32,000 bases of DNA, taken from NCBI RefSeq assembly GCF_000015945.1, contig NC_009033.1:30001-62000 (forward strand), written 5' to 3'. Source of the stretch: Staphylothermus marinus F1. GTDB lineage: Archaea > Thermoproteota > Thermoprotei_A > Sulfolobales > Desulfurococcaceae. Below are positions 5,911 through 22,737 of this stretch, piece after piece. The notes below the pieces were generated by a model. That model was not told where the DNA came from. It saw only the letters and a list, made by a program, of their open reading frames with translations, and ran no database searches. Each line of letters begins with the position of its first letter. Position 1 is the first letter of the stretch. The position numbers and the translations under genes were made by a program.

Positions 5911-6471
5911 ATGGTAGCTCCTAGGCCCATGACTAGAGATGCGTTAATGTCAGCTTTTGGCGGGGAATCTATGGCGCATATGAGGTATTCAATATTTGCA
6001 GACATTGCTGAAAAAGAGGGTTTTCCCAATGTAGCCCGTTTATTCAGAGCGATAGCGTTTGCTGAAAAAGTTCATGCAAGAAATCATTATCAGAGACTTG
6101 GAGAACTAGATACTGATGCTAAAGTTGTTGCTGGAGCTCCGTTTGGTCCAGGAAATACATCTAAGAATTTAAGCCTAGCTATTCGCGGAGAAGAATTCGA
6201 AATAAATGAAATGTATCCAACATATATTAAAATAGCAGAGTCTCAAGGAGAAACACAAGCAGTCATAAGTTTTAAATGGGCTCTCGAAGCAGAAAAGATA
6301 CATGCAGAATTGTATAAGAAAGCTAAGGAATATGTTGATAAGGGAGAGGATATGCCGATAGATGGTTATATATGGATTTGTCCAGTTTGCGGCTTTACAT
6401 ATGTAGGTAAGGAGCCTCCACCTAAATGTCCAATATGTGGTGCACTAGGAGAAAAATTTGTTAAATTCTAA
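5911..6471 (+). CDS. rbr: Rubrerythrin
   Basis: A ferritin-like diiron four-helix region (ESMAHMRY, AEKVHARNH, EEFEINEMYP, EAEKIHAELY) is followed by a C-terminal rubredoxin-like CPVCG...CPICG. AAGGTGGTG lies upstream of the ATG. Confidence 0.9.
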   Translation: MVAPRPMTRDALMSAFGGESMAHMRYSIFADIAEKEGFPNVARLFRAIAFAEKVHARNHYQRLGELDTDAKVVAGAPFGPGNTSKNLSLAIRGEEFEINEMYPTYIKIAESQGETQAVISFKWALEAEKIHAELYKKAKEYVDKGEDMPIDGYIWICPVCGFTYVGKEPPPKCPICGALGEKFVKF

Positions 6472-6642: not shown

Positions 6643-8610
6643 TTGCAGTATCTGAGACTAGTCTCATCGATGCTTGTGTTTCTTATTATATTATCGGCTA
6701 TATTCATGGTGAATGCTTACCCTGCTAATATCACTATTCACACTTTTAGAAAGTCGGTTGTAGTTTATGCTCCCGCAGTTACACGCAGTGGTGAGGGGGC
6801 TGTTCTCCGAGTAAATCTTACAATTGTTTATCCAGGTTCTGGAATGGTATATTTTTCTGCGAGACCCCTTGTTGAACCAGATACCCAAGCAACAGCACGT
6901 ATTGCAGCATATGTTGCTTCCACAGTTACCGGCCAAAATTTTTACTCCTATGACTACTACGTAGTTATGACTAGTAATTCTCTCGTAGTTGGAGGACCGA
7001 GTGCGGGCGGGTTAATGACTATTGGGTTTATATCTTTGTTTCTGAATAAGACATTGAACCCTAATGTAACGATGACTGGAATGATAAATCCTGATGGAAG
7101 CATTGGCCCCGTAGGCGGGCTTCTCGGAAAACTCCATGCTGTTGCTAAAAGTGGGTTCAAGGTTTTCTTAATACCAGTTGGTCAGAGAATAGTTTATGTC
7201 GAGAAAAGAATTGTTAAGAGGGTTCTCTGGGGATATTATGAGACAATTAAATATGTGCCAGTAGACCTTGTTAAGGAGGGTGAAAAACTTAACGTAACAG
7301 TTATTGAAGTTGGCAACATCTTTGACGCTATGAAGTATTTCCTCGGAGTAAATGTGAAGCCTATTAAGAGCTCGAAGATAATAATGAACAATACTGTTCT
7401 CAACATCATAGATAAATTTGCATGGGAAAACTATGTTAGATCAATGAATTTATTCAATGAATCTAAGAAACTCTTTAACCAATTAGACTTGTTCACTAGA
7501 ATACAGCTATACGATCAGATCAAAAATGTTGAGAAAATGAATTATCAGTTGAAACAATTGATAGATGAGAACTTATCTATCGCATCTTTTATTTATTCTA
7601 ATAAAGTGCTTAAAGAAAACATTTACATAAACTGGCTATATAAATCAATTCTTGGAAAACTAAATTTAGAAAACACTATCTCAATGATTAATGAGACTAT
7701 AAAAGATCTCCACGATAAATTATCTACTACTGGTCCAGGATTAAATCCTCTATTAATTGAATCACATGGATTATATTTTCAAGCATTAACGAATTATATT
7801 GAATTGCTCAGTAAAAACAATGCATCATTTACTACTGGCGATATCGAAAAATTAGCTGATGTAGCTGTTAAGCTATACTTCTCTGATCAATTACTCAATA
7901 TATCATCAATGTTTAGCAAGAAATATATAAACATAACTGATTCGTTCATGACTTTGTATAGTTTATCTGATTCAGTTGTTTCATATGCTTATAGCTTAGC
8001 AAACGATATTGGAGGTGGAAACCAATATATAGTTGAGGCACTAAATTATTTCCAGGATGCTATAAATGCTTATACAACTAATTACACGGTAGCATCAATA
8101 GGGTTATTGATAGATAGTATCGTGTATGCGGATATAGGGATAGAGACGCTTTTTATACAAAACAATACTGTTTATTCAAATATAACTATGTATCTAATGA
8201 GAGAGCATTTAATCTATTATAATCTCACAACAATCAAAGATTATATGAACTATACATTCATGGCTAGTAATCAATATATGTATATTAATGACTATGTGGA
8301 TTCCATGTATACATTATTAAAAGGGATAATGTACGCCTCCATATTCATGTCAAATAATACATCATTAAACATAGTTGAAAATACAGTGTTTCTTCCATCT
8401 AGTACTCCAGTTAATAATCCAAATAATAGAACCGAAACACCTACTAGTAGATCAACATCTAATAGTACTAGAATAAACGAGATCAATACAAATATACAAG
8501 ATACGGTATACTACGTTTTAGGATTAATCACAGGCTTCGCACTCGGTTTAATAACGTATTATATCTACTCAGTCACGAAGAGAAAGAAAGGAGAAAGTCT
8601 CAATATATAG
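6643..8610 (+). CDS. Secreted, C-terminally membrane-anchored Lon-like S16 serine protease domain protein (archaeal COG1750-type)
   Basis: The Lon proteolytic-domain motifs GGPSAGG (catalytic Ser) and GKLHAVAKSG (Lys) are present. There is an N-terminal signal-like segment MLVFLIILSAIFMVNA. A roughly 400-aa Asn/Tyr-rich region carries about 20 N-x-S/T sequons, followed by a Thr/Ser/Asn-rich linker and one C-terminal TM helix plus KRKK. The start is uncertain: TTG 6643 after GGAGGGTG, ATG 6670, or the ORF start at 6610. Confidence 0.7.
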   Translation: MQYLRLVSSMLVFLIILSAIFMVNAYPANITIHTFRKSVVVYAPAVTRSGEGAVLRVNLTIVYPGSGMVYFSARPLVEPDTQATARIAAYVASTVTGQNFYSYDYYVVMTSNSLVVGGPSAGGLMTIGFISLFLNKTLNPNVTMTGMINPDGSIGPVGGLLGKLHAVAKSGFKVFLIPVGQRIVYVEKRIVKRVLWGYYETIKYVPVDLVKEGEKLNVTVIEVGNIFDAMKYFLGVNVKPIKSSKIIMNNTVLNIIDKFAWENYVRSMNLFNESKKLFNQLDLFTRIQLYDQIKNVEKMNYQLKQLIDENLSIASFIYSNKVLKENIYINWLYKSILGKLNLENTISMINETIKDLHDKLSTTGPGLNPLLIESHGLYFQALTNYIELLSKNNASFTTGDIEKLADVAVKLYFSDQLLNISSMFSKKYINITDSFMTLYSLSDSVVSYAYSLANDIGGGNQYIVEALNYFQDAINAYTTNYTVASIGLLIDSIVYADIGIETLFIQNNTVYSNITMYLMREHLIYYNLTTIKDYMNYTFMASNQYMYINDYVDSMYTLLKGIMYASIFMSNNTSLNIVENTVFLPSSTPVNNPNNRTETPTSRSTSNSTRINEINTNIQDTVYYVLGLITGFALGLITYYIYSVTKRKKGESLNI

Positions 8611-9874: not shown

Positions 9875-9981
9875 GAATATAATTTTTTTATTTTAATAAA
9901 GAAGTATTTATAACTCGTCATAATTATTAATTGATAAAATATATTAGGAAACCTATATATATTCTTAAATCGGTGAAGTAT

Positions 9982-10359
9982 ATGAAGAGGTTCGGAGACC
10001 TAATCTATACTCCTGAAACAGCATCTGGAGAAGCTATAACTAAGGTAGAATCCCATACACCAAAAATCGAAGCACCAGACAAGGTTAAAGCAGGTGAGCC
10101 ATTCAAGGTAAAAGTGAGTGTTGGACCGCATCCTAACAAGGTTGAACATAGTATTAGATGGGTAGAGCTCTACTTTGAGGAGGAGGGAAGAGCGTTCAAC
10201 CCTGTTCTTCTAGGCAGAGCTTATTGGACTCCAGTATATGTAGAGCCACAAGTAGAATTCACTGTTAAACTCGAGAAGAGCGGAGTCCTATATGCTATAA
10301 TATATTGTAACTTGCATGGTCTATGGGAAGCTCGTAAGGAAATTAAAGTTGAAAAATAA
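9982..10359 (+). CDS. sor: Superoxide reductase (1Fe-SOR / neelaredoxin type)
   Basis: Motifs: ESHTPKIE (E-x-H-x-P), HPNKVEHSIRWVELYF (two His ligands) and YCNLHGLWE (Cys-x2-His). ATG 9982 follows GGTGA and gives about 125 aa, typical for 1Fe-SOR. Confidence 0.85.
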   Translation: MKRFGDLIYTPETASGEAITKVESHTPKIEAPDKVKAGEPFKVKVSVGPHPNKVEHSIRWVELYFEEEGRAFNPVLLGRAYWTPVYVEPQVEFTVKLEKSGVLYAIIYCNLHGLWEARKEIKVEK

Positions 10360-11160: not shown

Positions 11161-12525
11161 TTATTCTCTAATAATGCTTAAAGCTTTATATACTACTTCT
11201 ACGGGAGTTTTTCCAAGCACTCTTATCATTGCTTCTTTACCAACATCTCCAGTATCATAGATTATGTCTGGAACTCTTTTCACTTTCTTAAAAGCTGTTT
11301 CCATAATCCAAGGAATACTTCTACCTTCTACTAGGCGGACTTCTTCTGGTTCATTTCTACGATCAATATATACTACAATATATCCTTTCTTCTCCGCTCT
11401 CTCTACTAGTTTCTCATCATATTTTAAATTCATAGCTGATCTAATACTTGGATCGTATTTCATAGCTGTTAGTACTAATCTAGCCATATGACTTGAAGCC
11501 CCAAACTCTACTGGCCCAACAATTTTTACTCCGTCACCATACCTAACTATTCTCCCTTTGACTCCTGCAACATCATTTATTGTCTCAGCATACCTAGGAT
11601 CTATGGCCATTACTAGATTAGAACCTGTTTCAGGAATGTATTTATTGAAGAGCTTCTGGTTTTCAATTATGATCTTTAAAGCTTCTTTTACGGATTCGAT
11701 GACGTGATACTTCATTGCAGGTATCTCGATCCAAGCCATTGGATTAACGGGGCAAGCTCCTCTTCCCACTTTAACTCCATACTTAATAGCCATTGTTATG
11801 AATTTCTTAGCGGTTTTAACGGCTTTAACAATATCTCTGCCTTTAGCAAGCTCTACGGCTATTGCGGCTGAGAATGAACAACCTGTACCATGTGTACATC
11901 CATCCACTATTCTTGGTGCTCTAAACTCGTAGAATTTACCATTATAATACATTATATCAATAGATTCCTCTCCTACCTCAATATGTCCTCCTTTAACTAT
12001 AGCTGCTGTAGCCCCCAGTTCTTCAACAATGTATTTTGCAGCTTTTCTAGCATCCTCGAAATTATTGATTTTCATACCAGTAATTTTTTCTGCTTCATGT
12101 TTATTTGGAGTGATTACAGTAGCTATTGGTACCATATACTTTATGAGTGCATTCATTGCTTCTGGTCTCAAAAGTGGAGCACCGCTTTTAGCTATCATTA
12201 CTGGGTCAACTACCAATGGGAATCCAAGCTTTGAAACAGTTTCAGCCACGGCTCTAATAATTTCGGAATTGCTAAGCATACCTGTTTTACCAGCATCAAT
12301 ACCTATATCCTCCCATACAGTAATTATTTGTCTAGCAACCATTTCTGGAGGTAAATCATGAATACCAGTCACTTGATAAGTGTTCTGAGCTGTTACACTA
12401 GTTAAGGCAACAACTCCGTGAACTCCTAGTGCAGCAAAAGTTTTAAGATCAGCCTCTATACCAGCTCCACCACCAGAATCACTACCAGCAATCGTTATAG
12501 CTATAGGATATAATTTCTTTTTCAT
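11161..12525 (-). CDS. thiDN: Bifunctional ThiD (HMP/HMP-P kinase) - ThiN (archaeal thiamine-phosphate synthase) fusion
   Basis: The N-terminal ThiD motifs are [18 protein letters not shown] and [13 protein letters not shown]-terminal domain of about 180 aa follows, as in archaeal ThiDN. ATG 12525 is preferred over the upstream ATG 12558. Confidence 0.85.
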
Positions 12526-12527
12526 AG

Positions 12528-12551
12528 AACACTCCCTCTTTGAGGAGTGTT
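12528..12551. promoter_or_regulatory. Palindrome AACACTCC-N8-GGAGTGTT in the divergent thiDN / ykoD-like promoter region; candidate operator
   Basis: Read directly: arms at 12528-12535 and 12544-12551. It lies between the TATA-like ATTATATATT of thiDN and its ATG. An extra GAGGAGTG half-site at 12599-12606 sits just before the ATG of the ATPase gene. Confidence 0.35.
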
Positions 12552-12616
12552 TCATCAATATATAATTTAGTTATCAAAATATATATAACTTGATTATCGA
12601 GGAGTGGTAGAGAAAC

Positions 12617-14077
12617 ATGATAAAGTACAGTATCAACGCTGCCGGATACGTTGAGAACGAAAAAATACTGGAAAACATCTTAGGAGAGGTAAGCCCTGGA
12701 GAAACAATAATAATGGCTGGTCCATCAGGCTCTGGTAAAACAACATTATTGCTTACATTAACAGGTGTATTAACGAATCTCCTAAATGGATGGGTTAAAG
12801 GAAAAGTTCTTATAGATGATCTAGATCCGTTACAAGATAGTGATTTCACAAATATACCTTATGTATTAGGAGCTGTTCTACAAGACCCAGATAAACAAAT
12901 AGCAATGCCTACACCACTAGACGAAGTATCTTTTCAACTCGAAAACCTCGGATATAATGAGGAGGAAGCACAACGTCTGGCATTTTTAGCATTGAAAAAA
13001 TATGGGCTAGAAAAAAAGGCAAATATGCATGTCGAATACTTATCAGGGGGAGAGAAGAGGAGGCTAACATTTGCATCAGCAACCGTTCATGATCCCAAAG
13101 TGTTATTTCTAGATGAGCCTACAGCATCTGTTGATCCATGGGGAATAAAGCAGATAAGAGAATTTATAGTGGAGGCTGAAAAGAGAAACAAGACGATAAT
13201 AATAGTTGAACATAAACTAAAATATTTCATGGATATAGTTGATGAAATACATGTTCTTAGAAGGGGCAAGCTTGAACGAGTGTATAGGAAAGAAGAGATG
13301 ACAAACGAAGTTCTAGATCAACTTGAAGAAATGGGTATTGATGCGAAATCTCCACATATTCTGCCTTCTAGGCCCGTTAAGAATAAGATAATACTGAAAA
13401 CACGCAATCTAACAATCGGTTACCCTAATAGTGAAGTATTGGTAAAAGATATTGATTTAGAGCTTCATGAAGGCGAGATTGCAGTAATTGTTGGACCTAA
13501 TGGATCAGGTAAGACAACTCTTCTCAAAACATTAATTGGTGCAATTCCTGCGATTGATGGAGAAATATACTATTCAGGAGAGAAACTTGTTTATCGTGGG
13601 AATAAATTGTTTAAAGGACTATTTTATGTACCACAACAACCAGACTATTTATTCATAGAAACAAGTCTTGCAAAGGAAATATTAGAACTAGCTAAGAAGA
13701 CAAGAACCGATCCAAAGATTATTGCTGAAAAAATACCATGGTTTAATGAGTTGAAAAATACGAGCCCATATAATCTAAGCCATGGTCAACGTAGATGGTT
13801 GTCAATTATAATTGCTTGGGTGTACAAGTCTAGGATTATATTATTGGATGAACCAACAACGGGTCTGGATTATTCTTTATTTAAGGAGTTAAAGAGGTTG
13901 ATTAATAAACTTAGGGATATGGGTTTATCATTTATAATATCAACTCATGATCCAAGAGTTGTTGGGGAACTAGCTGATACCGTTTATTATATGGATCCTA
14001 TTTCTAGAAGACTTGACCTTAGGGATAAGGAGGAAATTGTTGAGCTATTAGAAAGAATTGCGGGTGTGTTATTTTGA
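12617..14077 (+). CDS. ykoD: ECF-transporter duplicated ATPase (EcfA-EcfA' fusion, YkoD-like)
   Basis: It has two complete ABC cassettes. Walker A: GPSGSGKT and GPNGSGKT. Signatures: LSGGEKRR and LSHGQRRW. Walker B: LFLDEPT and ILLDEPT. H-loops: VEHK and STHD. The fused architecture and thiamine-gene neighbourhood match ykoD. Confidence 0.8.
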   Translation: MIKYSINAAGYVENEKILENILGEVSPGETIIMAGPSGSGKTTLLLTLTGVLTNLLNGWVKGKVLIDDLDPLQDSDFTNIPYVLGAVLQDPDKQIAMPTPLDEVSFQLENLGYNEEEAQRLAFLALKKYGLEKKANMHVEYLSGGEKRRLTFASATVHDPKVLFLDEPTASVDPWGIKQIREFIVEAEKRNKTIIIVEHKLKYFMDIVDEIHVLRRGKLERVYRKEEMTNEVLDQLEEMGIDAKSPHILPSRPVKNKIILKTRNLTIGYPNSEVLVKDIDLELHEGEIAVIVGPNGSGKTTLLKTLIGAIPAIDGEIYYSGEKLVYRGNKLFKGLFYVPQQPDYLFIETSLAKEILELAKKTRTDPKIIAEKIPWFNELKNTSPYNLSHGQRRWLSIIIAWVYKSRIILLDEPTTGLDYSLFKELKRLINKLRDMGLSFIISTHDPRVVGELADTVYYMDPISRRLDLRDKEEIVELLERIAGVLF

Positions 14078-14769
14078 GGAGGCCTTCTTCATCAATATTA
14101 TTTATATATGCATTGTTTGTTTCTCTACTAGCATATGCTTATAGAGACCTATATGATCTATTGGTTATTGGTTTGATTAATCTTGTATTAGGGGTAATGT
14201 ATGGTTATAGATACAAGTTGTTATGGTTATTGTTGATTCTAGGCTTATGGGGAACATTCATAAATGCTTACACAGTTTCGAATACAGGTAGTATAGTGGT
14301 TGATTGGGGTTGGATAACTATACGTGAAGGTGCTTTAACAGCTACAGCCGCAATTTTTATGAGGCTACTATCAATAGTTGGTGCTACACTCTTCTTCATA
14401 GGTAACTCTACTCCTTCAGAACTAGTGAGATCGCTTGTATCAGAACTAAGAATCCCTAAGGGTTTAGCCTTTTCAATATCGTATGCTTTACGACTAATAC
14501 CTTTAATGAAGAAAGATTATGAGGAAATAAGAATTGCTAGATTAGAGCGTGGATATAGAAGAATACCGTATTTACCCAATGATTTAAAATCATTTCTATT
14601 ACCACTACTAAGTATTGCTTATGAGAGAGCGGTTTGGGCAGGAATAGCTGTGGAGCTGAAAGGGTTTAGGCTGAGGAAAGTAAGGTATAGAAAAATACGT
14701 ATCAGGGTTCCAGAGATTATTGTATTTGCTTTGTTAGCAATACAAGTTATTGTTCCTTTAATGTTTTAG
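14074..14769 (+). CDS. ykoC: ECF-transporter T component (CbiQ/EcfT family, YkoC-like)
   Basis: The start overlaps the ATPase stop (TTGA). It is a polytopic protein with the characteristic EcfT region ALRLIPLMKKDYEEIRIARLERGY. Confidence 0.75.
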   Translation: MRRPSSSILFIYALFVSLLAYAYRDLYDLLVIGLINLVLGVMYGYRYKLLWLLLILGLWGTFINAYTVSNTGSIVVDWGWITIREGALTATAAIFMRLLSIVGATLFFIGNSTPSELVRSLVSELRIPKGLAFSISYALRLIPLMKKDYEEIRIARLERGYRRIPYLPNDLKSFLLPLLSIAYERAVWAGIAVELKGFRLRKVRYRKIRIRVPEIIVFALLAIQVIVPLMF

Positions 14770-15573
14770 TTTTTTCAAATAATCATCTATAAGATCAGCT
14801 ACTTTCCTGCCTGAAACAAGCATTCCTCCAAAGATAGGGCCCATTCTATGAGTATTATATAGTTCAGCAACACTCATACCGGTAACGAATAATCCTTTAA
14901 CAACCATACCTGTTTTCTCAACAACCTCTTCTTCACCAATCCAAACATTCTGACTAGACATTCCAGGAACATTTATTTTGAGCTCCGGATGTCTTTTAGC
15001 AAGTATTCTCAATAATGATCCATCATGACCTGTTGCATCAACAACAGCTTTAGCCTCCACATAGAATGGATCAACATGCCAACCAGCCTCGAAAATAGGT
15101 GTCCAATTAATAAGCACTCCTCTAACAACTAGATCTTCTCCTCTACCACGCGTAATTAAATCCTCAACTACAACACCAGGCCATATTATTGCACCATTCT
15201 CAATAGCATTAGATGCTAATTTAACAGCTAACTCACTCGGATCAATAACAAAAAGCCCATCTCTAACCTTATTAATCCTTGCACCCGCCTCTCTAGCAAT
15301 CTCTGCTGCCTCACCATCCTCTAATAACCCAATTGGTAAAAGCATTGATCCCCCTCTCATCCCTCCTCCAACACCAAGCATTCTCTCGAGAACAACTACT
15401 TTGTAGCCTTTCTCGCCTAGTTTCCAAGCAGCTGTTAATCCTGAGGGGCCTGCACCAACAATTACTACATCTACACGGACAATTTCTGATAGTTTCTTGT
15501 GCAATGCATCAATCAATGTTTTAGCAAGGTCTCCTTCGCTCAGTTCATATAGTTTTTCGGGGAAGAACTTCAT
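14758..15573 (-). CDS. thi4: Thiazole synthase Thi4 family (archaeal thiamine thiazole biosynthesis enzyme)
   Basis: It has the FAD/NAD fold VVIVGAGPSGLTAA, then VVDATGHDGS and GMSV....HRMGPIFGGMLVSG, typical of Thi4. ATG 15573 is preceded by GAGGGG with an 8-nt spacer. Confidence 0.85.
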   Translation of the reverse strand: MKFFPEKLYELSEGDLAKTLIDALHKKLSEIVRVDVVIVGAGPSGLTAAWKLGEKGYKVVVLERMLGVGGGMRGGSMLLPIGLLEDGEAAEIAREAGARINKVRDGLFVIDPSELAVKLASNAIENGAIIWPGVVVEDLITRGRGEDLVVRGVLINWTPIFEAGWHVDPFYVEAKAVVDATGHDGSLLRILAKRHPELKINVPGMSSQNVWIGEEEVVEKTGMVVKGLFVTGMSVAELYNTHRMGPIFGGMLVSGRKVADLIDDYLKKLKH

Positions 15574-15657
15574 ATATTGTTCCCCTCGCAAATATTATTA
15601 CTCGGTTATTATATAATTAATAATCAGGTTATAATATGTTTTACCGGGTGGACACAT

Positions 15658-16197
15658 ATGAGCGCTGGGAAGCTAAAATATACTGTGATCGACTACACTA
15701 TTCTAGGAGTAGTAGCTGTAGTAGCGGGCTTAATATTCTATGCTACATGGTTCATATACTATGCAGCAGAAGCTGTTGGCGGAAAGATACTTGCTAGAAT
15801 AGTATCTTATGGATTATGGTTTATCGGCGCACCACTAGCAGCATCAATGATAAGGAAGCCATTATCAGCTTTTCTAGGCGAAACACTTGGAGCACTAGTA
15901 GAAACAATAATCCCCACAGCCGGTGGATTCACAAACCTAATATATGGTATTGCTCAAGGCTTAGCGTCTGAGGCAGCGTATGCGTTATTCATGTATAGAA
16001 GATACGATCCATATATAGGAGCGTTGGCAGGTGCCTTTGCAGCATTTCCATGTGTAGCATTAGATGCAGTGTTATTCGGTGAAATAGCATCTCCAGAAGT
16101 AATGACCCTATGGCTAATAGCGGCAATTGTGAGTGGAGCAATATATGGATTCGTAGGATCAGTTGTAGGATTTACGGTAACCAAGAGAAAAATGTAA
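15658..16197 (+). CDS. ykoE: ECF S component, YkoE-like (predicted HMP/thiamine-precursor capture protein)
   Basis: About 180-aa membrane protein starting MSAGKLKYTVIDYTILGVVAVVAG after GGGTGG. The assignment combines the general S-component topology with its position between thi4 and tenA and next to the ykoDC-like genes. Confidence 0.6.
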   Translation: MSAGKLKYTVIDYTILGVVAVVAGLIFYATWFIYYAAEAVGGKILARIVSYGLWFIGAPLAASMIRKPLSAFLGETLGALVETIIPTAGGFTNLIYGIAQGLASEAAYALFMYRRYDPYIGALAGAFAAFPCVALDAVLFGEIASPEVMTLWLIAAIVSGAIYGFVGSVVGFTVTKRKM

Positions 16198-16201
16198 TAA
16201 T

Positions 16202-16237
16202 TGATCTCGAGGAAAATCTGAGATCACATTTGTTTTT
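16202..16237 (+). terminator. Hairpin (TGATCTC / GAGATCA) followed by a T5 run just after the ykoE-like stop codon
   Basis: Stem 16202-16208 pairs with 16220-16226, with an 11-nt loop and TTTTT at 16233-16237. Archaeal termination mainly needs oligo-T, so the role of the hairpin is uncertain. Confidence 0.3.
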
Positions 16238-16267
16238 CATTAAACACTCATATCTAAAAATATATGG

Positions 16268-16936
16268 GTGAGGCCATTGCAGATTACACAGAGGCTAAGA
16301 GAAGAGGCAAGTAGTATATGGAATAAGATATTCAAACACCCCTTCGTAGTCGAGCTCTTCAAGGGTTCTCTGCCAATAGAAAAGTTTAGGTACTATGTTA
16401 TTCAAGACTATAATTTCCTTATCGGCATGACTAAGGCGTTTTCATTATTGGCATCTAAAGCTTATGATTATGAATTGTTAAGAGAAGCATTATCGCTAGC
16501 ATATAGTGATGCAACGATCGAAATGGATAATTACCTAAAACTACTAGATAAACTAGACTTAACCATAGAAGATGTCTTAAACACTGAGCCAGCACCTACA
16601 AATACAGCATATGTTAACCATATATTATCAACTTGTAGTCTAGGAACATCCATAGAATGCCTAGTCTCAACCCTACCATGCTTCTGGACCTATATGGAAA
16701 TACCTAGAGTAAACAATGATTTAATCATGGAAAATAAGAACCCAATATATATAGAATGGATAAACACCTATAGATCAAAAGAATATATTGAATTAACAAC
16801 TAAACTAATAAATTTAGTAGACAAGTATGCAGAACACATAGATTACAATAAGCTGAAAAGAATATTCATATTGAGTAGCCGATACGAATACATGTTCTGG
16901 GACATGGCCTACAATATGGAGAAATGGCCAGTATAA
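16268..16936 (+). CDS. tenA: TenA-family aminopyrimidine aminohydrolase (thiaminase II, thiamine salvage)
   Basis: Motifs: HPFVVELFKGSLPIEKFRYYVIQDYNFL and the C-terminal YEYMFWDMAY, typical of TenA. The start is GTG 16268, or TTG 16277 just after GGGTGAGG. Confidence 0.85.
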   Translation: MRPLQITQRLREEASSIWNKIFKHPFVVELFKGSLPIEKFRYYVIQDYNFLIGMTKAFSLLASKAYDYELLREALSLAYSDATIEMDNYLKLLDKLDLTIEDVLNTEPAPTNTAYVNHILSTCSLGTSIECLVSTLPCFWTYMEIPRVNNDLIMENKNPIYIEWINTYRSKEYIELTTKLINLVDKYAEHIDYNKLKRIFILSSRYEYMFWDMAYNMEKWPV

Positions 16937-17532
16937 ATAAAACATAAAACACAGCATTTTCAGCAAGAGGTTTCTAATCTGCTAAGCATGTATTGAATTA
17001 AATTTATAAGTGGTCAATGGTGAAAAGCTGATTAATATTTTTATAAAAATATACCGTCAAGTTTTTAATAGTTCTTAACCAGTAGCGGATCATTATTATT
17101 TATCATATAAATATAAATACCAATATGTAGTGGATTGGCTAATTATTTATAGTAGACCTCCTCAATAAATGCTCTCGACATAACCAATTTAATTTGCTAA
17201 GGATTCCTTAACTAAATAATATTCCATTAATACATGCAAGTTCGGAACACTTATTAAAAATTTATAAACTATTAAGGGAGAAGCCCCAGCAAGTATCCAA
17301 AATAACCAAAAAATAAAGCACGGGCAACCACAGACTAGACATGCAATCAACTACCTCATAAACTAAATAACCATGAAAAATGCTCCATACAGCAATTCCT
17401 GATTGAAGGGCTAAACACATAAATGCGTGGTCGCAGATATGGGGATTTCTTCTGGACGGGATTAAAACAAAAACCCTCCCACATCCTTAGAACAGCATCA
17501 TATTAAATACTTGATAAATTTATAATAGAAGA

Positions 17533-17824
17533 GGCAGGGTTGGAACACTCCATAAGAGGCCCAACCCCGTAAAGCACTAATTATAACCCCCCGCTCAAGC
17601 CAAAAGACCCCTTAAGAAGCCCCAACAACGACTCCCCCGGGGAGGAGACTCAACGCAGAATCATGCAAACCTAGACCCCCGGGGTGAATCTAGGCTTGCA
17701 CGATCCTACGTTGAGCCTCCGAGCCGTTGTTGGGGCTTCCCTTGGGGCCTTATCGGCTTGTTCGAGGGGTTGGGACATTGTTAATTTTTGGGGTTAGACC
17801 CCTTATGGAGTGCTCCCAACCCTG
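17533..17824 (-). ncRNA. Candidate novel structured RNA: 292-nt GC-rich rod-like hairpin of unassigned class
   Basis: Hand pairing of 17533-17674 against 17688-17824 gives 98 Watson-Crick pairs. A further 14 positions are A/C on the plus strand but G-U on the minus strand; none goes the other way. GC is about 55% by hand count within AT-rich flanks. There is no ORF, and a TATA-like box lies upstream on the minus strand. Confidence 0.6.
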
Positions 17825-17849
17825 CTGTTTATTTTATTGTTGTCAGTTT

Positions 17850-17858
17850 GTTTTTTAA
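17850..17858 (-). promoter_or_regulatory. TATA-like box (TTTAAAAAA on the minus strand) positioned for transcription starting at the base of the hairpin
   Basis: The minus strand reads CCTTTAAAAAACA. The box centre is about 30 nt upstream of 17824, compatible with a start site 2-4 nt before the first paired base. Confidence 0.35.
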
Positions 17859-18330
17859 AGGCTCAGGCTCATTAAGTGTGCATTACTTGGCTATAGGATA
17901 AATATTGAATACTGAGTCGGCACGGGGCGGTAGAAAGTTTAGCTTACTATTGATCTGACAAGAGATCTGTTCAAGTAACAACGTACCAATATAGGATCCA
18001 GCATTGATAAATGATCATCCAATCTAGCCAAGCTACTAGATATCTATAATGATCCTTGAAAGCGACTCAGACAGGCATAGTTGGGATTCTTCAGACATAG
18101 GTTCATCTCGACTTGCATGATTCCCTCCGCAATATTATCCTGCAAGAGCCATTACCTGCGATTTATTAAGGAAAGTTTGAAACTCTATGAATTAATGGAA
18201 ATTTATGTTTATCAGGTTTGGATTTTACGCAGACATCCCTATTACGCTCCACAAATTAAGAACATTTTCAAACGTAATAATTTATGTAAATGAATAATAT
18301 TGTTTTTATTGGCTTAAATAGTAGTAAAAT

Positions 18331-19452
18331 TCAGCCAACGTTTATGCCTAGCAGTATTGATGCTAGTAAGCCTATTAGGTACGTTAACCCAGCTGCTCCT
18401 AATCCTCCAATTAGTAGTTCTATTATTTTCTTCTTTATGTTTAAACCAGCTGATAATGCTATTATGAACCCTACCATGCTGAGCATTAATCCTGCGAATA
18501 ATAGTGATAGGGGCAGAGATATTATTATTGGTAATCCTAGGAAGTAGGGTATTAAAGGTATTATTGCTCCAACTATGTAGAATAAACCTGTTATTAATCC
18601 TGATTTTGCAGGATTTTCTATCATTACCTCTTTTATACCATATTTTTCCTCGACAACTAGTTTTCTAAGCAATTCCTTGTTTCTAGATGCATCGCTCAAT
18701 ATTTTATCAACAGTATCCCTAGAGTACCCTCTTGAGGATATAATCTTAGATAGAGTTTCAACTAGTTTATCCGGTATACTCTTAACGGCACTAATTACTC
18801 TATAAAGAACGCTCATTCTAACTTCTCTCTGAGCCTTCACACTAATATATGCTCCTATACCCATAGATAGAGAACCTGCTATTCCAACTATGAGCCCGCC
18901 AAGCGCAACATTTAACGGGTTACCGTATGCTCCAGCTAAACCTGCTGAAACAGATAATATTTCTACTAATCCATCATTCATTCCTAAAACAGCATCCCTC
19001 ACATGGTCTAGGAACTCCTTGATCTTTGATTCCTCCTCTATGAAGCTTTCTTCATGCATTAATTCATCGGCAACGATCTTTTTCAGCCATTCTTTTTCTT
19101 CATCACTTAACTCGGAAGACTCGAGGAGATCAGCATACATTTTAATCGCTTCAGATTCACCAGATTCTAGTAGTTTTAGTGTTAATCCAAAACCTATTAC
19201 TGGAAATAATAGCTCATATATGAAAACCTTGGTTTTACTAGGCTTAATCTTCGCTGGATCCACACCGTATTTTCTCAGGATTCGTGCCCAGAAACCAGCG
19301 TGTTCCGCTTCCATACGTGCTATTTCTAGTAATTTCTTAGATATTGGTTTATCTTTTAATTTACTGGCTATTAATGAGTATATTGCTGCGGATTCTAGTT
19401 CGTCCCTATATGCTTTTTTAACCTTAACAATAAAGTCACTGCTAACATTCAA
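18331..19452 (-). CDS. Ferritin-like (erythrin) domain fused to a VIT1/CCC1 iron-transporter domain (Er-VIT1 / MbfA-like)
   Basis: The N-terminal diiron-type helices are DELESAAIY, EAEHAGFW, GESEAIKMY and DELMHEE. A VIT1 membrane domain follows (RDAVLGMNDGLVEILSVSAGLAGA plus C-terminal TM helices). The gene starts 3 nt after the fprA stop. Confidence 0.8.
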   Translation of the reverse strand: MNVSSDFIVKVKKAYRDELESAAIYSLIASKLKDKPISKKLLEIARMEAEHAGFWARILRKYGVDPAKIKPSKTKVFIYELLFPVIGFGLTLKLLESGESEAIKMYADLLESSELSDEEKEWLKKIVADELMHEESFIEEESKIKEFLDHVRDAVLGMNDGLVEILSVSAGLAGAYGNPLNVALGGLIVGIAGSLSMGIGAYISVKAQREVRMSVLYRVISAVKSIPDKLVETLSKIISSRGYSRDTVDKILSDASRNKELLRKLVVEEKYGIKEVMIENPAKSGLITGLFYIVGAIIPLIPYFLGLPIIISLPLSLLFAGLMLSMVGFIIALSAGLNIKKKIIELLIGGLGAAGLTYLIGLLASILLGINVG

Positions 19453-19455
19453 ATA

Positions 19456-20676
19456 TTATTCACCAAGTATTTCGAGAAGCTTATTTGTTGCTTCGACTAT
19501 TTTATCTCTGAACTTATCTATTTGTCCAGCTCTAAATTCTACTACATCAACTACTTCGAACCCATTATTTGTTAGTAGTTCTCTTATTTTCTTTCCAGCG
19601 ACCCCTCCCCATCCATAATTAGTTATAACGAGGACTTTCTTATTCTTGGGTATTTTCTCTATTATCAAGTCTAATATGTATCTCATTAATGGAAATATTG
19701 AAGCTTCATATGTTGCTGTTCCAAGTATTATAGCTGAGGAATTCAATAAGTCAGCTAATAGATCACTATATTTATCCCTATAATAGTCTAGGAAACGATA
19801 TACTTTGTAGAATGCTTTTTTCTCATCAAGCACTTTAACAGCTTCTTTAACAGCTTTATCAACGAATCCATACATTGATGAATAAACTACAACTATCTTT
19901 TTCTTCCCACTAACACTTGTTCCCCTACTCCATGAGTGATAATATTTCATGATTATATCTGGGTTTTTCCATATGATACCATGTGCTGGAGCAATCATTT
20001 CTATGTTAAATCCTAGTGATTCTAACTTGTTTAATGCTTTCTCAATCCAAGAAGCATAGTGACCTATAACTGTTGCAATATATTTCCGAGTATAGAACAT
20101 ATATTCTTTGTGTTCTTCGGGGCTTAGTTCTGTATCATATATTTTATCGAGAATATTATATGATCCGAAAGCATCACATGTTAATAGTACATGGAGATCC
20201 TCAATATAGGTCATTATTGTTTCAGGCCAATGCAACCAAGGAGTATATATGAATTGTAACTTGTATTCTCCAATCTCTAATACCTCATTGTCTTTAACAG
20301 GCTTGAATTTTGGCTTAACATTATAGAATGATTCGATCATTCCCTTAGTAAGCGGGTGACCAAGAACTAGTATTTCAGAGTTTATTTCTAATAAGTCCTT
20401 TATAGAGCCGCTGTGATCGGGCTCCATATGGTGAATTATAAGGTATTTGATCTCTTTTGGATCAACTATTTTCTTCAACTCATTAATAAATTCTTTACCA
20501 TAAATGTGTTTCCATGCATCAAACAATACGTATCCATCCTTTGTCTTTAAAAGGTACGCATTATATGTTATTCCTTCGGGTATATACCATAATCCTTCAA
20601 AGTATTTGATTTGATCATCATCTATTCTTAACAGGTAGAATCCAGGTTTGATCTCTACAGTGTAGGTTTTAGGCAT
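19456..20676 (-). CDS. fprA: Flavodiiron protein (A-type flavoprotein, O2/NO reductase)
   Basis: A metallo-beta-lactamase-like domain with HHMEPDHSGS is followed by a C-terminal flavodoxin-like domain (KIVVVYSSMYG). ATG 20676 follows AGGTGAT, so it is preferred over the ORF start at 20700. Confidence 0.85.
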   Translation of the reverse strand: MPKTYTVEIKPGFYLLRIDDDQIKYFEGLWYIPEGITYNAYLLKTKDGYVLFDAWKHIYGKEFINELKKIVDPKEIKYLIIHHMEPDHSGSIKDLLEINSEILVLGHPLTKGMIESFYNVKPKFKPVKDNEVLEIGEYKLQFIYTPWLHWPETIMTYIEDLHVLLTCDAFGSYNILDKIYDTELSPEEHKEYMFYTRKYIATVIGHYASWIEKALNKLESLGFNIEMIAPAHGIIWKNPDIIMKYYHSWSRGTSVSGKKKIVVVYSSMYGFVDKAVKEAVKVLDEKKAFYKVYRFLDYYRDKYSDLLADLLNSSAIILGTATYEASIFPLMRYILDLIIEKIPKNKKVLVITNYGWGGVAGKKIRELLTNNGFEVVDVVEFRAGQIDKFRDKIVEATNKLLEILGE

Positions 20677-20783
20677 AGGATCACCTTGTAAATTAAGCAT
20701 AGCTCATTTAACTAATAAAGTTAGGGTTCATTAATAATATTTAGTTATAGATAAATAAAGTGTTCTATATAAAGATAAACATT

Positions 20784-22029: not shown

Positions 22030-22737
22030 TTATTTCTGTAGTTTAGCGGCTCTCTCAAGCCATTTACGGACTTCTTCAACTTCTTCTTTCGGCACTACCC
22101 CTTCTTCGTAGCAGAACCACCAGTCGAAGCACTTGTATTTCTTCAATCTCTCTTCTGCCTCCTTAACTGTTCCTGCAGGTGGTACAATTACTGAGTCACC
22201 TATTAACTCGTTGTTCGGCCAGTTGGCTGGTGTCGCTCTACCATACTTATCTGTTATTTGAATTGCCTTGACTAATCTAAGGATCTCATCAATATTTCTA
22301 CCATTGTCTAGTGGATAGTAGATAATTGCTCTAATAATTCCATTAGGGTCAATGACAAATACGGCTCTAACAGTATGTGTTGAGCTCGCAGCGTGGAGCA
22401 TTCCTAGTTTGCTAGCAACTGTTCCTCTGGGATCAGCCATTATTGGGAACGGTATTTCTACACCTAACTTCTCCTTTATCCATTCAATCCATTTAATATG
22501 GCTGAAGTTGCTGTCAACACTAAGACCTATTAATTCAGTGTTAAGCTTCTTGAAGTCTTCATATCTCTTAGCGAATGCTACGAACTCGGTGGTACATACT
22601 GGTGTGAAGTCTGCTGGGTGGCTGAATAAGACCCAGTACTTACCTTTAAAGTAATCTGGTAGCTTTATTTTTCCATGTTGTGTAACTACTTCCATTTCAG
22701 GGAATTTTTCTCCTATAAGAGGAATTGTTCCAGGCAT
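22030..22737 (-). CDS. Peroxiredoxin (archaeal Prx6-like thioredoxin peroxidase with C-terminal extension)
   Basis: The peroxidatic motif is [14 protein letters not shown]. The C-terminal arm carries CFDWWFC, as in Aeropyrum-type peroxiredoxins. Confidence 0.9.

Follow-up and report, generated by a model that had tools for sequence, protein, structure and literature searches.

Introduction

Archaeal non-coding RNAs outside the universal ones are poorly charted. To our knowledge almost none of those described is a long, near-perfect hairpin, because Archaea have no dsRNA pathway that we know of. The closest precedents in the Archaea are the SRP (7S) RNA and the Hgc RNAs, the latter reportedly described by Klein, Misulovin and Eddy in 2002 as GC-rich structured non-coding RNA genes of AT-rich hyperthermophiles. 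Outside the Archaea, long imperfect rods are found in bacterial 6S RNA, of which we know no archaeal counterpart, and in eukaryotic hairpin-RNA and pri-miRNA genes; we know of no dsRNA-dicing pathway in Crenarchaeota. The hyperthermophile Staphylothermus marinus belongs to the Desulfurococcales and has a GC content of 35.7%; five IS607-family elements and a ~260-nt MITE in 14 copies are reported from its genome (PMC2678158).

The element analysed here occupies positions 17533-17824 on the minus strand of a 32-kb stretch of the S. marinus F1 genome (hereafter the window), between TenA/Smar_0054 and VIT1/Smar_0055, and it resembles each of these RNAs in part. Like the Hgc RNAs it is a GC-rich intergenic island that is structured, non-coding, narrowly distributed and equipped with a putative promoter of its own, but it matches no Rfam Hgc model and consists of one almost uninterrupted 122-bp stem, which makes it much longer and simpler. 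Like archaeal SRP RNA it is ~300 nt long, rod-like and GC-rich, with its 5' and 3' ends paired; unlike SRP RNA it is unbranched, lacks the helix 6/8 fork, the Alu-domain helices 3/4 or loops and the GNAR tetraloops, and gives no match to the Archaea_SRP model even at E <= 10. Its resemblance to bacterial 6S RNA is superficial and lies in the long, imperfect rod, the pairing of the ends and the single large internal loop, a shape that suggests decoy or scaffold action; however, it has no Rfam 6S match, and its loop lies near the base rather than at the centre, is AU-rich and is partly paired. As an analogy only, it may be likened to eukaryotic hairpin-RNA and pri-miRNA genes in its apparent origin by inverted duplication, its near-perfect pairing and its more constrained 3' arm; it differs from them in that a search of the window revealed no target complementarity and that its host belongs to a clade without a known dicing pathway.

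No known RNA family was recovered at the locus. A search of the whole window against Rfam 15 returned no match at the gathering score, and a search of 17300-18050 at E <= 10 returned only two noise matches, mir-1305 (E 4.8) and Ysr197 (E 9.8), in keeping with the view of an initial annotation, made from the sequence alone, that the element is novel. Archaeal RNase P RNA, rRNA, and C/D and H/ACA sRNAs were considered and set aside, as none of the Rfam models matched. ARAGORN found no tRNA, and split-tRNA halves were sought with ARAGORN and with a T-arm pattern and none were found; the published split tRNA-Lys of S. marinus lies at 1.28 Mb. The element is mentioned in no paper that a literature search retrieved.

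Genomic context and distribution of the element

The VIT1/rubrerythrin gene (18331-19452, minus strand), the protein product of which is 100% identical to ABN69168 of S. marinus F1, converges on the TenA gene (16268-16936, plus strand), and the two are separated by an ORF-free spacer of 1.4 kb that contains the hairpin. The initial annotation had placed the DNA among the Desulfurococcales, correctly. The locus tags used here, Smar_0054 (TenA), Smar_0055 (VIT1) and Smar_0066 (IleRS), were taken from the supplement of the genome paper. A search of genome contigs with the VIT1 protein gave a Thermoplasmata MAG as its sole match.

The element is present in two species (four sequences), namely in strains of S. 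marinus and in S. hellenicus. In three Logan assemblies of S. marinus-like strains it is found at the same site with 98.3-100% identity; two of these show AG->GA in the 5' arm, a swap by which an A-U and a G-U pair trade places and both remain intact. In S. hellenicus, where VIT1 is 88% identical and the gene order is the same, a 1350-bp spacer holds an orthologue of the hairpin at the same site. Good alignment of that spacer is confined to a 540-nt block (84% identity), which begins ~20 nt upstream of the putative TATA box, runs through the hairpin and ends ~200 nt beyond it; the 450 nt from VIT1 to the promoter cannot be aligned between the species. In a third Staphylothermus-like lineage (L009), the VIT1 of which is 83% identical, the gap between VIT1 and TenA measures only 60 nt. 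As this close relative lacks the whole spacer, the spacer was either inserted in the S. marinus/S. hellenicus clade or deleted outside it, and the genus can do without the RNA. In relatives with VIT1 at 70% identity, the neighbouring genes differ.

The position of the hairpin between two convergent genes would suit a bidirectional terminator or insulator, although this is the least credible of the explanations that were weighed and has next to no probability in our estimate. The hairpin lies 500-600 nt from the stop codon of either gene, archaeal RNA polymerase terminates at oligo-T and has no need of hairpins, L009 manages with its 60-nt spacer, and a 122-bp hairpin with a putative promoter of its own far exceeds what a terminator requires.

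The minus strand is predicted to fold into a single hairpin

Folding was performed with ViennaRNA, and minimum free energies (MFE) and z-scores against shuffled sequences were computed for the 311-nt stretch 17525-17835. On the minus strand, 17533-17824 forms a single unbranched hairpin of 122 pairs, comprising 105 Watson-Crick (WC) pairs, 17 G-U pairs and no A-C pair, in both the MFE and the centroid structure. The MFE is -212.6 kcal/mol (z = -23) for the minus strand against -158.6 kcal/mol (z = -11) for the plus strand, and at 92 °C the minus strand keeps 113 pairs (-40.8 kcal/mol) against 67 for the plus strand (-21.2 kcal/mol); from 37 to 100 °C, the stability of the minus strand is far above that of the plus strand. 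The 5' and 3' ends of the hairpin pair with each other, the two arms are 71% identical when compared as DNA repeats, and GC content is 55.5% in the hairpin against 35.6% in the whole window. A conserved ORF was looked for in the hairpin and none was found.

The wobble pairs are distributed in one direction only. The initial annotation had listed 14 A/C oppositions of the plus strand as potential G-U pairs of a minus-strand RNA; all of them are such pairs, although the coordinates given were 1 nt too low (2 nt for the first), and the left-arm positions are in fact 17545, 17557, 17560, 17562, 17591, 17607, 17614, 17615, 17631, 17648, 17656, 17659, 17663 and 17669. Three further G-U pairs, at left-arm positions 17602, 17676 and 17677, bring the split to 17:0 in favour of the minus strand (binomial p = 1.5e-5), and none runs the opposite way, as the annotation had held.

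The remainder of that description was largely borne out. The imperfect inverted repeat is real and folds as one hairpin, the GC enrichment (estimated at ~55% against about one-third around it) and the lack of an ORF agree with the values above, and the expectation that the minus strand would be the more stable holds at every temperature in the range computed. The irregularities of the stem are broadly as first described, except that the two 1-nt bulges had been placed at 17812 and 17753 (Table 1); the 9-nt insertion corresponds to an unpartnered copy of the motif CCCCGGGGG, and the 13-nt loop (17675-17687) is obtained once the weak U-G pairs that flank the shorter apical loop melt. The AU-rich internal loop (about 15x16 nt) lies ~35 bp from the base of the hairpin and ~85 bp from its apex, and a short helix within it covaries, reading AAU/AUU in S. 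marinus and GGU/AUC in S. hellenicus (columns 104/304 and 105/303).

Table 1. Features of the hairpin locus, in window coordinates
Feature	Position	Strand	Basis
Hairpin RNA body	17533..17824	-	Fold, pair conservation with S. hellenicus, statistics
Putative archaeal-type promoter: TATA box TTTAAAAA (17859-17852) and upstream BRE-like CTGAGCC	17852..17866	-	Sequence, conservation
1-nt bulges	17815, 17752	-	Fold
Two 2x2 purine loops	Hairpin stem	-	Fold
AU-rich internal loop, 5' side	17772..17789	-	Fold
AU-rich internal loop, 3' side	17569..17584	-	Fold; holds invariant GUGCUUUAC
Apical loop ACCCCGG	17679..17685	-	Fold; unpaired probabilities at 92 °C
CCCCGGGGG motif 1, apical, includes self-complementary CCCCGGGG	17676..17684	-	9-mer count; conserved in S. 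hellenicus
CCCCGGGGG motif 2, unpartnered bulge in 3' arm	17634..17642	-	Fold; conserved in S. hellenicus
Conserved non-coding, weakly structured tail 3' of hairpin	17334..17532	-	Alignment to S. hellenicus
Candidate terminator, first strong T-run TTTTTGTTTT after hairpin	17464..17473	-	Sequence; inferred from oligo-T termination

Changes between species preserve pairing

The S. hellenicus sequence, folded independently, adopts the same rod (-211.7 kcal/mol), and pairs were counted after correction of a 1-nt MAFFT misalignment at the base of the stem. The independent MFE structures have 114 pairs in common. Between the species 20 of these have changed, every one without loss of pairing in the minus-strand sense: 18 have switched between WC and G-U, and 2 have undergone double compensatory change. 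On the full S. marinus structure, 23 changed pairs are kept and 2 are mismatched, against 6-12 kept and 18-27 not kept in controls in which the 3' partners were slid by 1-3 columns. Among the predicted pairs of the adjacent tail, 13 are changed, with 7 kept and 6 broken (3 of them by GC->AC), and the difference between hairpin and tail in kept and broken pairs is significant (Fisher p = 0.0015). True double compensatory changes number 2-4, all from one deep comparison between two species.

A neutral palindrome without RNA function could in principle acquire such a pattern through strand-biased mutation, as the initial annotation had itself cautioned, or through gene conversion from arm to arm. 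Deamination proceeds strongly at about 90 °C, conversion from one arm to the other can look like compensatory change and only two species are available; nevertheless, we consider this explanation very improbable. The 18 WC/G-U switches include both structure-neutral kinds of transition, 10 C/U opposite G and 8 A/G opposite U, and split 18:0 (p about 1e-5). Transitions that would create A-C oppositions are absent from the 114 shared pairs (2 appear in the uncorrected alignment) and are frequent in the tail on the same strand, and strand-biased mutation is therefore not the explanation. Gene conversion would erase G-U pairs, yet 11 are fixed in both species. The hairpin is also 86% identical between S. 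marinus and S. hellenicus, far above the 67% of the four-fold sites of the VIT1, TenA and ODP genes; the sequence is therefore constrained as well as the structure, most strongly at the apex and in the basal 3' arm. On the evidence of fold and substitution pattern, the element is very probably a genuine minus-strand structural RNA under selection. The reading of the initial annotation is thus supported, the computational checks that it proposed having turned out in its favour.

Invariant segments and the CCCCGGGGG motifs

Two segments of the hairpin do not vary between the species: a 40-nt run at the apex that encloses the apical loop (P about 0.002 at 14% divergence), and a 33-nt run in the basal 3' arm that begins at GUGCUUUAC. 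Single changes number 15 in the 5' arm and 6 in the 3' arm. The 9-mer CCCCGGGGG occurs twice in the window (expected 0.01), each time in the hairpin, and both copies are kept in S. hellenicus, the invariance of the 18 nt that they comprise having P about 0.07 at 14% divergence. The second copy sits 33 nt from the apical one and has no counterpart in the 5' arm. The two copies are the best conserved and least helical parts of the element. The CCCCGGGG duplex has a computed energy of -5.8 to -7.4 kcal/mol at 92 °C; being self-complementary and able to hold a duplex at this temperature, the CCCCGGGG sites could mediate RNA-RNA contacts, or they could be a protein site that a rigid rod presents.

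A putative promoter, a conserved tail and the extent of the transcript

The minus-strand box that the initial annotation had noticed ~30 nt upstream of the hairpin, TTTAAAAA, is conserved in S. hellenicus; as an 8-mer it has five occurrences on the two strands of the window (64 kb). Archaeal promoters have a TATA box centred near -26/-27, and from the position of this box and the usual spacing, initiation is predicted at about 17829-17825. The first paired base of the stem is 17824, so that transcription would begin at the base of the hairpin stem; stable structural RNAs typically start in this way, with the 5' end at the foot of the stem that closes them. Termination at the candidate T-run TTTTTGTTTT, 60 nt past the stem, would yield an RNA of about 360 nt. 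In S. hellenicus this run is weakened to T4, which makes the 3' end uncertain; the RNA might measure ~360-450 nt and have the hairpin as its 5' domain.

The tail that follows the hairpin is ~85% identical to S. hellenicus, against 67% at the four-fold sites of the flanking genes, and may be part of the hairpin transcript or a separate element. Inspection of the tail in S. marinus and S. hellenicus found no conserved ORF, and no fold is conserved between the two species. Its AUGAUGC was considered as a C box and discarded, since S. hellenicus has not kept it. An alternative pairing between the 3' strand of the hairpin and the tail was also rejected, being weak, with one compensatory change but three broken pairs.

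These observations bear on whether there is a longer transcript that starts with the structured hairpin and continues through the tail and perhaps a 53-aa Cys-rich hydrophobic ORF on the same strand (17350-17189). The hairpin would then have a cis-acting role, stabilising this transcript or controlling its processing or translation. The tail matches the hairpin in conservation, no strong conserved terminator precedes it, and the ORF, the distance and weakening of the first T-run and the single compensatory change in the alternative pairing would all fit such a leader. We nonetheless consider a leader unlikely, given that the small ORFs are disrupted in S. hellenicus by a stop codon, a frameshift and a 65-nt deletion, that the tail lacks a conserved fold, that the alternative pairing is broken at three positions and that the two ends of the hairpin pair together, as they do in stable stand-alone RNAs. 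A stand-alone RNA is the likelier form, and the element is probably an independently transcribed minus-strand gene for a non-coding RNA, in which a putative BRE/TATA promoter would drive expression of a thermostable hairpin of ~122 bp.

Relationship to the MITE-like repeats of S. marinus

The inverted-repeat architecture of the hairpin raises the question of whether it is a foldback or palindromic relic of mobile DNA, either MITE-like or derived from the single-stranded origin or hairpin of an integrated plasmid or virus. Any role of such a relic would be at the level of DNA or ssDNA, and it might have none. In the Logan assemblies, two F1-like contigs stop precisely at an insertion, ~2 kb beyond IleRS, that a third strain lacks, and the contigs leading toward the TnpB locus Smar_0083 likewise end ~2 kb past IleRS. 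The terminal sequence of this insertion (...CCAAAAATAAAGCATGGGCAACCAC) recurs at another contig end and, in degenerate form, at 17285-17333 of the window, and a MITE-like repeat remnant is found at about 17128-17333, ~200 nt from the hairpin, which lies outside it. The proximity of this degenerate copy, the 14 MITEs of about 260 nt in the genome paper (PMC2678158), the absence of the 1.4-kb spacer from L009 and the resemblance of the arms to an old inverted duplication all favour a mobile origin, and ssDNA also tolerates, and is stabilised by, G-T pairs. A 14-nt motif is common to the hairpin and the MITE-like repeat; however, the similarity is not significant, its score being reached by 7 of 100 shuffles (with ~110-200 nt of the repeat compared), and alignments of the hairpin arms to the repeat all have z < 3.5.

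Other observations speak against such a relic. Neither the window nor ~60 kb of additional Staphylothermus DNA contains a second copy of the hairpin, and no target-site duplication was found, the flanks (...AAATAAACA / hairpin / CTCTTCTATT...) containing no direct repeat; the extra copies and duplications by which the initial annotation would have recognised a MITE are thus not seen in these sequences. Contigs in Logan are assembled with k = 31 and stop at repeats. The hairpin lies mid-contig in each of the three short-read assemblies, which argues against near-identical copies, and the contigs break at the MITE-like repeat instead. There is no presence/absence polymorphism at the hairpin borders, as all S. 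marinus strains and S. hellenicus possess the hairpin, and L009 lacks the whole 1.4-kb spacer and not the hairpin alone. BLASTN against phage and plasmid collections gave no match to the hairpin, nor did scans of viral contigs with three 19-mers (one apical, two from the arms) and two R/Y patterns (two-motif and basal), and the two-motif pattern had no match in metagenomes. The basal R/Y pattern did match two metagenome contigs (L016 and L017), which were rejected as unrelated GC-rich sequences with no other similarity. A dead element would not be expected to keep 20 of 20 changed pairs or a conserved putative promoter placed at the base of its stem. The hairpin therefore resembles the ~260-nt MITE of S. 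marinus (PMC2678158) in its inverted-repeat architecture, its variable spacer and its position beside a repeat remnant, and differs from it in being single-copy in the data examined, in lacking a target-site duplication and significant similarity to the stretch of the repeat that was compared, and in a structure that appears to have been selected after speciation. A mobile relic is accordingly quite improbable, if less so than a neutral palindrome.

Discussion

The element is best filed, with moderate confidence, as a lineage-restricted orphan among the GC-rich structured RNAs of hyperthermophiles, one that is undescribed in the literature found. The gene probably arose from an inverted duplication within a 1.4-kb spacer that is present only in the S. 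marinus/S. hellenicus lineage. Its putative BRE/TATA promoter (17866-17852) would start transcription at the first nucleotides of the stem, and the RNA would fold on itself into the ~122-bp hairpin and remain folded at a growth temperature of about 90 °C. Since the duplication, selection would have allowed only those changes that preserve pairing, in the form of WC/G-U switches and double changes. The resulting rod may serve as a thermostable scaffold or decoy whose specificity would reside in its sequence-invariant parts: the 40-nt apex with the GC-only CCCCGGGG in its loop, the second CCCCGGGGG in its bulge and the invariant basal 3' strand. A protein could recognise these determinants, or a second molecule of the RNA could contact them through loop-loop or loop-bulge pairing.

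Action as a scaffold or decoy through the CCCCGGGG sites is the function that we consider most likely, although we put it forward tentatively. After this reading we rank, in descending order, the cis-acting leader, the foldback mobile relic, the neutral palindrome and the terminator. The ~120-bp hairpin might alternatively be a dsRNA-type regulator, a broader proposal to which we give about as little weight as to the mobile relic and which takes three forms. As a 6S-like decoy, the hairpin could be bait for a nucleic-acid-binding machine; through self-association, its two GC-only palindromic CCCCGGGG sites could build higher-order assemblies at 90 °C; and as a dsRNA-processing substrate, it could feed an as yet unknown archaeal dsRNA pathway, with the conserved 3' arm as the active product.

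The general importance of the element is limited by its two-species range and its dispensability in L009, unless a mechanism emerges. Its structure is nevertheless unusual for Archaea and its structure-preserving evolutionary signal is clean. If expressed, the RNA, in a cell that grows near 90 °C, would count among the most stable natural RNA duplexes on record, and would offer a handle on the dsRNA binders of Crenarchaeota.

Divergence of the TenA-VIT1 spacer and the sequence 3' of the hairpin

The spacer between TenA and VIT1, which holds the candidate minus-strand ncRNA hairpin (17533-17824), varies between lineages. In a related lineage whose VIT1 is 83% identical, 60 nt stand in place of the entire 1.4-kb spacer, and the 450 nt adjoining VIT1 (17865-18290) are unrelated in sequence between S. 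marinus and S. hellenicus. The 200-nt non-coding tail adjoining the 3' end of the hairpin is ~85% identical between the same two species, a value far above the 67% at four-fold degenerate sites of the flanking genes VIT1, TenA, and ODP. Comparison of the tail between S. marinus and S. hellenicus revealed no conserved ORF and no conserved fold. A possible alternative pairing on the minus strand (17471-17543) would join the hairpin's basal 3' strand, CCAACCCUGCC, to the tail segment GGGAGGGUU and is the source of a weak mir-1305 pseudo-hit; in S. hellenicus, this pairing carries one compensatory change (A-U to G-C) and three broken pairs.

The composition of the hairpin arms is strongly asymmetric: C and A predominate in the 5' arm, which has runs of the CCCCAA type, and G and U in the 3' arm, which has 5-6 runs of G4+. 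CG pairs number 41 versus 21 GC, and AU pairs 33 versus 10 UA, and between-species changes are 2.5x as frequent in the 5' arm as in the 3' arm. In S. marinus and S. hellenicus alike, AT-rich inverted repeats of 22-29 nt flank both sides of the stretch that directly follows the hairpin on its 3' side, and these may reflect chance in AT-rich DNA or may be the ends of another small element.

Features of the spacer, its repeats, and the wider neighbourhood (L007, S. hellenicus locus; L009, related lineage; L013 and L014, Logan contigs with the repeat at their ends)
Feature	Window	Strand	Other loci	Remark
TenA-VIT1 spacer	16937-18330		L007:6123-7471; L009:3800-3859	
Non-coding 200-nt tail	17334-17532	minus		adjoins hairpin
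AT-rich inverted repeats	17506-17527 / 17252-17273		L007 6959-6987 / 7290-7318	
Degenerate repeat copy	~17128-17333		L014:1-113; L013:1-126	clearest 17285-17333
Peptide-reading stretches	17189-17350	minus	L013:1-126, L014:1-113 (reverse strands)	
Oxidative-stress cluster	5911-6471, 9931-10359, 18331-20700, 22030-22737			
Thiamine block (ThiD/ThiN, ECF transporter, Thi4, TenA)	11161-16936			splits oxidative-stress cluster
PIN-domain/MazE-type antitoxin gene pair			L013:4123-4808; L014:1203-1888	just past right end of window

Wider gene neighbourhood

The surrounding oxidative-stress genes encode rubrerythrin, a desulfoferrodoxin-type SOR, a VIT1-rubrerythrin fusion, an ODP/flavodiiron-like protein, and peroxiredoxin. 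In three more distant relatives with VIT1 at 70% identity (L010-L012), the thiamine block does not adjoin VIT1, which is followed directly by AsnC and SOR. The PIN-domain/MazE-type antitoxin pair lies directly downstream of IleRS.

A MITE-like repeat near the hairpin

The terminus of the repeated element reads ...ATCCAAAAYAACC(A)AAAAATAAAGCAYRGRCAACYAC. F1-like strains carry a further copy inserted ~2 kb past IleRS, an insertion that is the exact break point of two Logan contigs, and strain ERR15087784 is without it. A MITE of ~260 nt has been described in the S. marinus genome paper (PMC2678158), and the repeated element in the spacer is probably this MITE.

Copies of the repeat translate as small, hydrophobic, Cys-rich predicted peptides (LIACLVCGCPCFIFWLFWILAGASPL..., GCSCLCFIFGCFGCYGYLQGLPPF..., GCPCFIFGCYGCFGRLVGFAL*). 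In the window copy, the ORF begins at a TTG and spans 53 aa; it is disrupted in S. hellenicus. The predicted peptides may represent a real peptide family or may be no more than repeat sequence.
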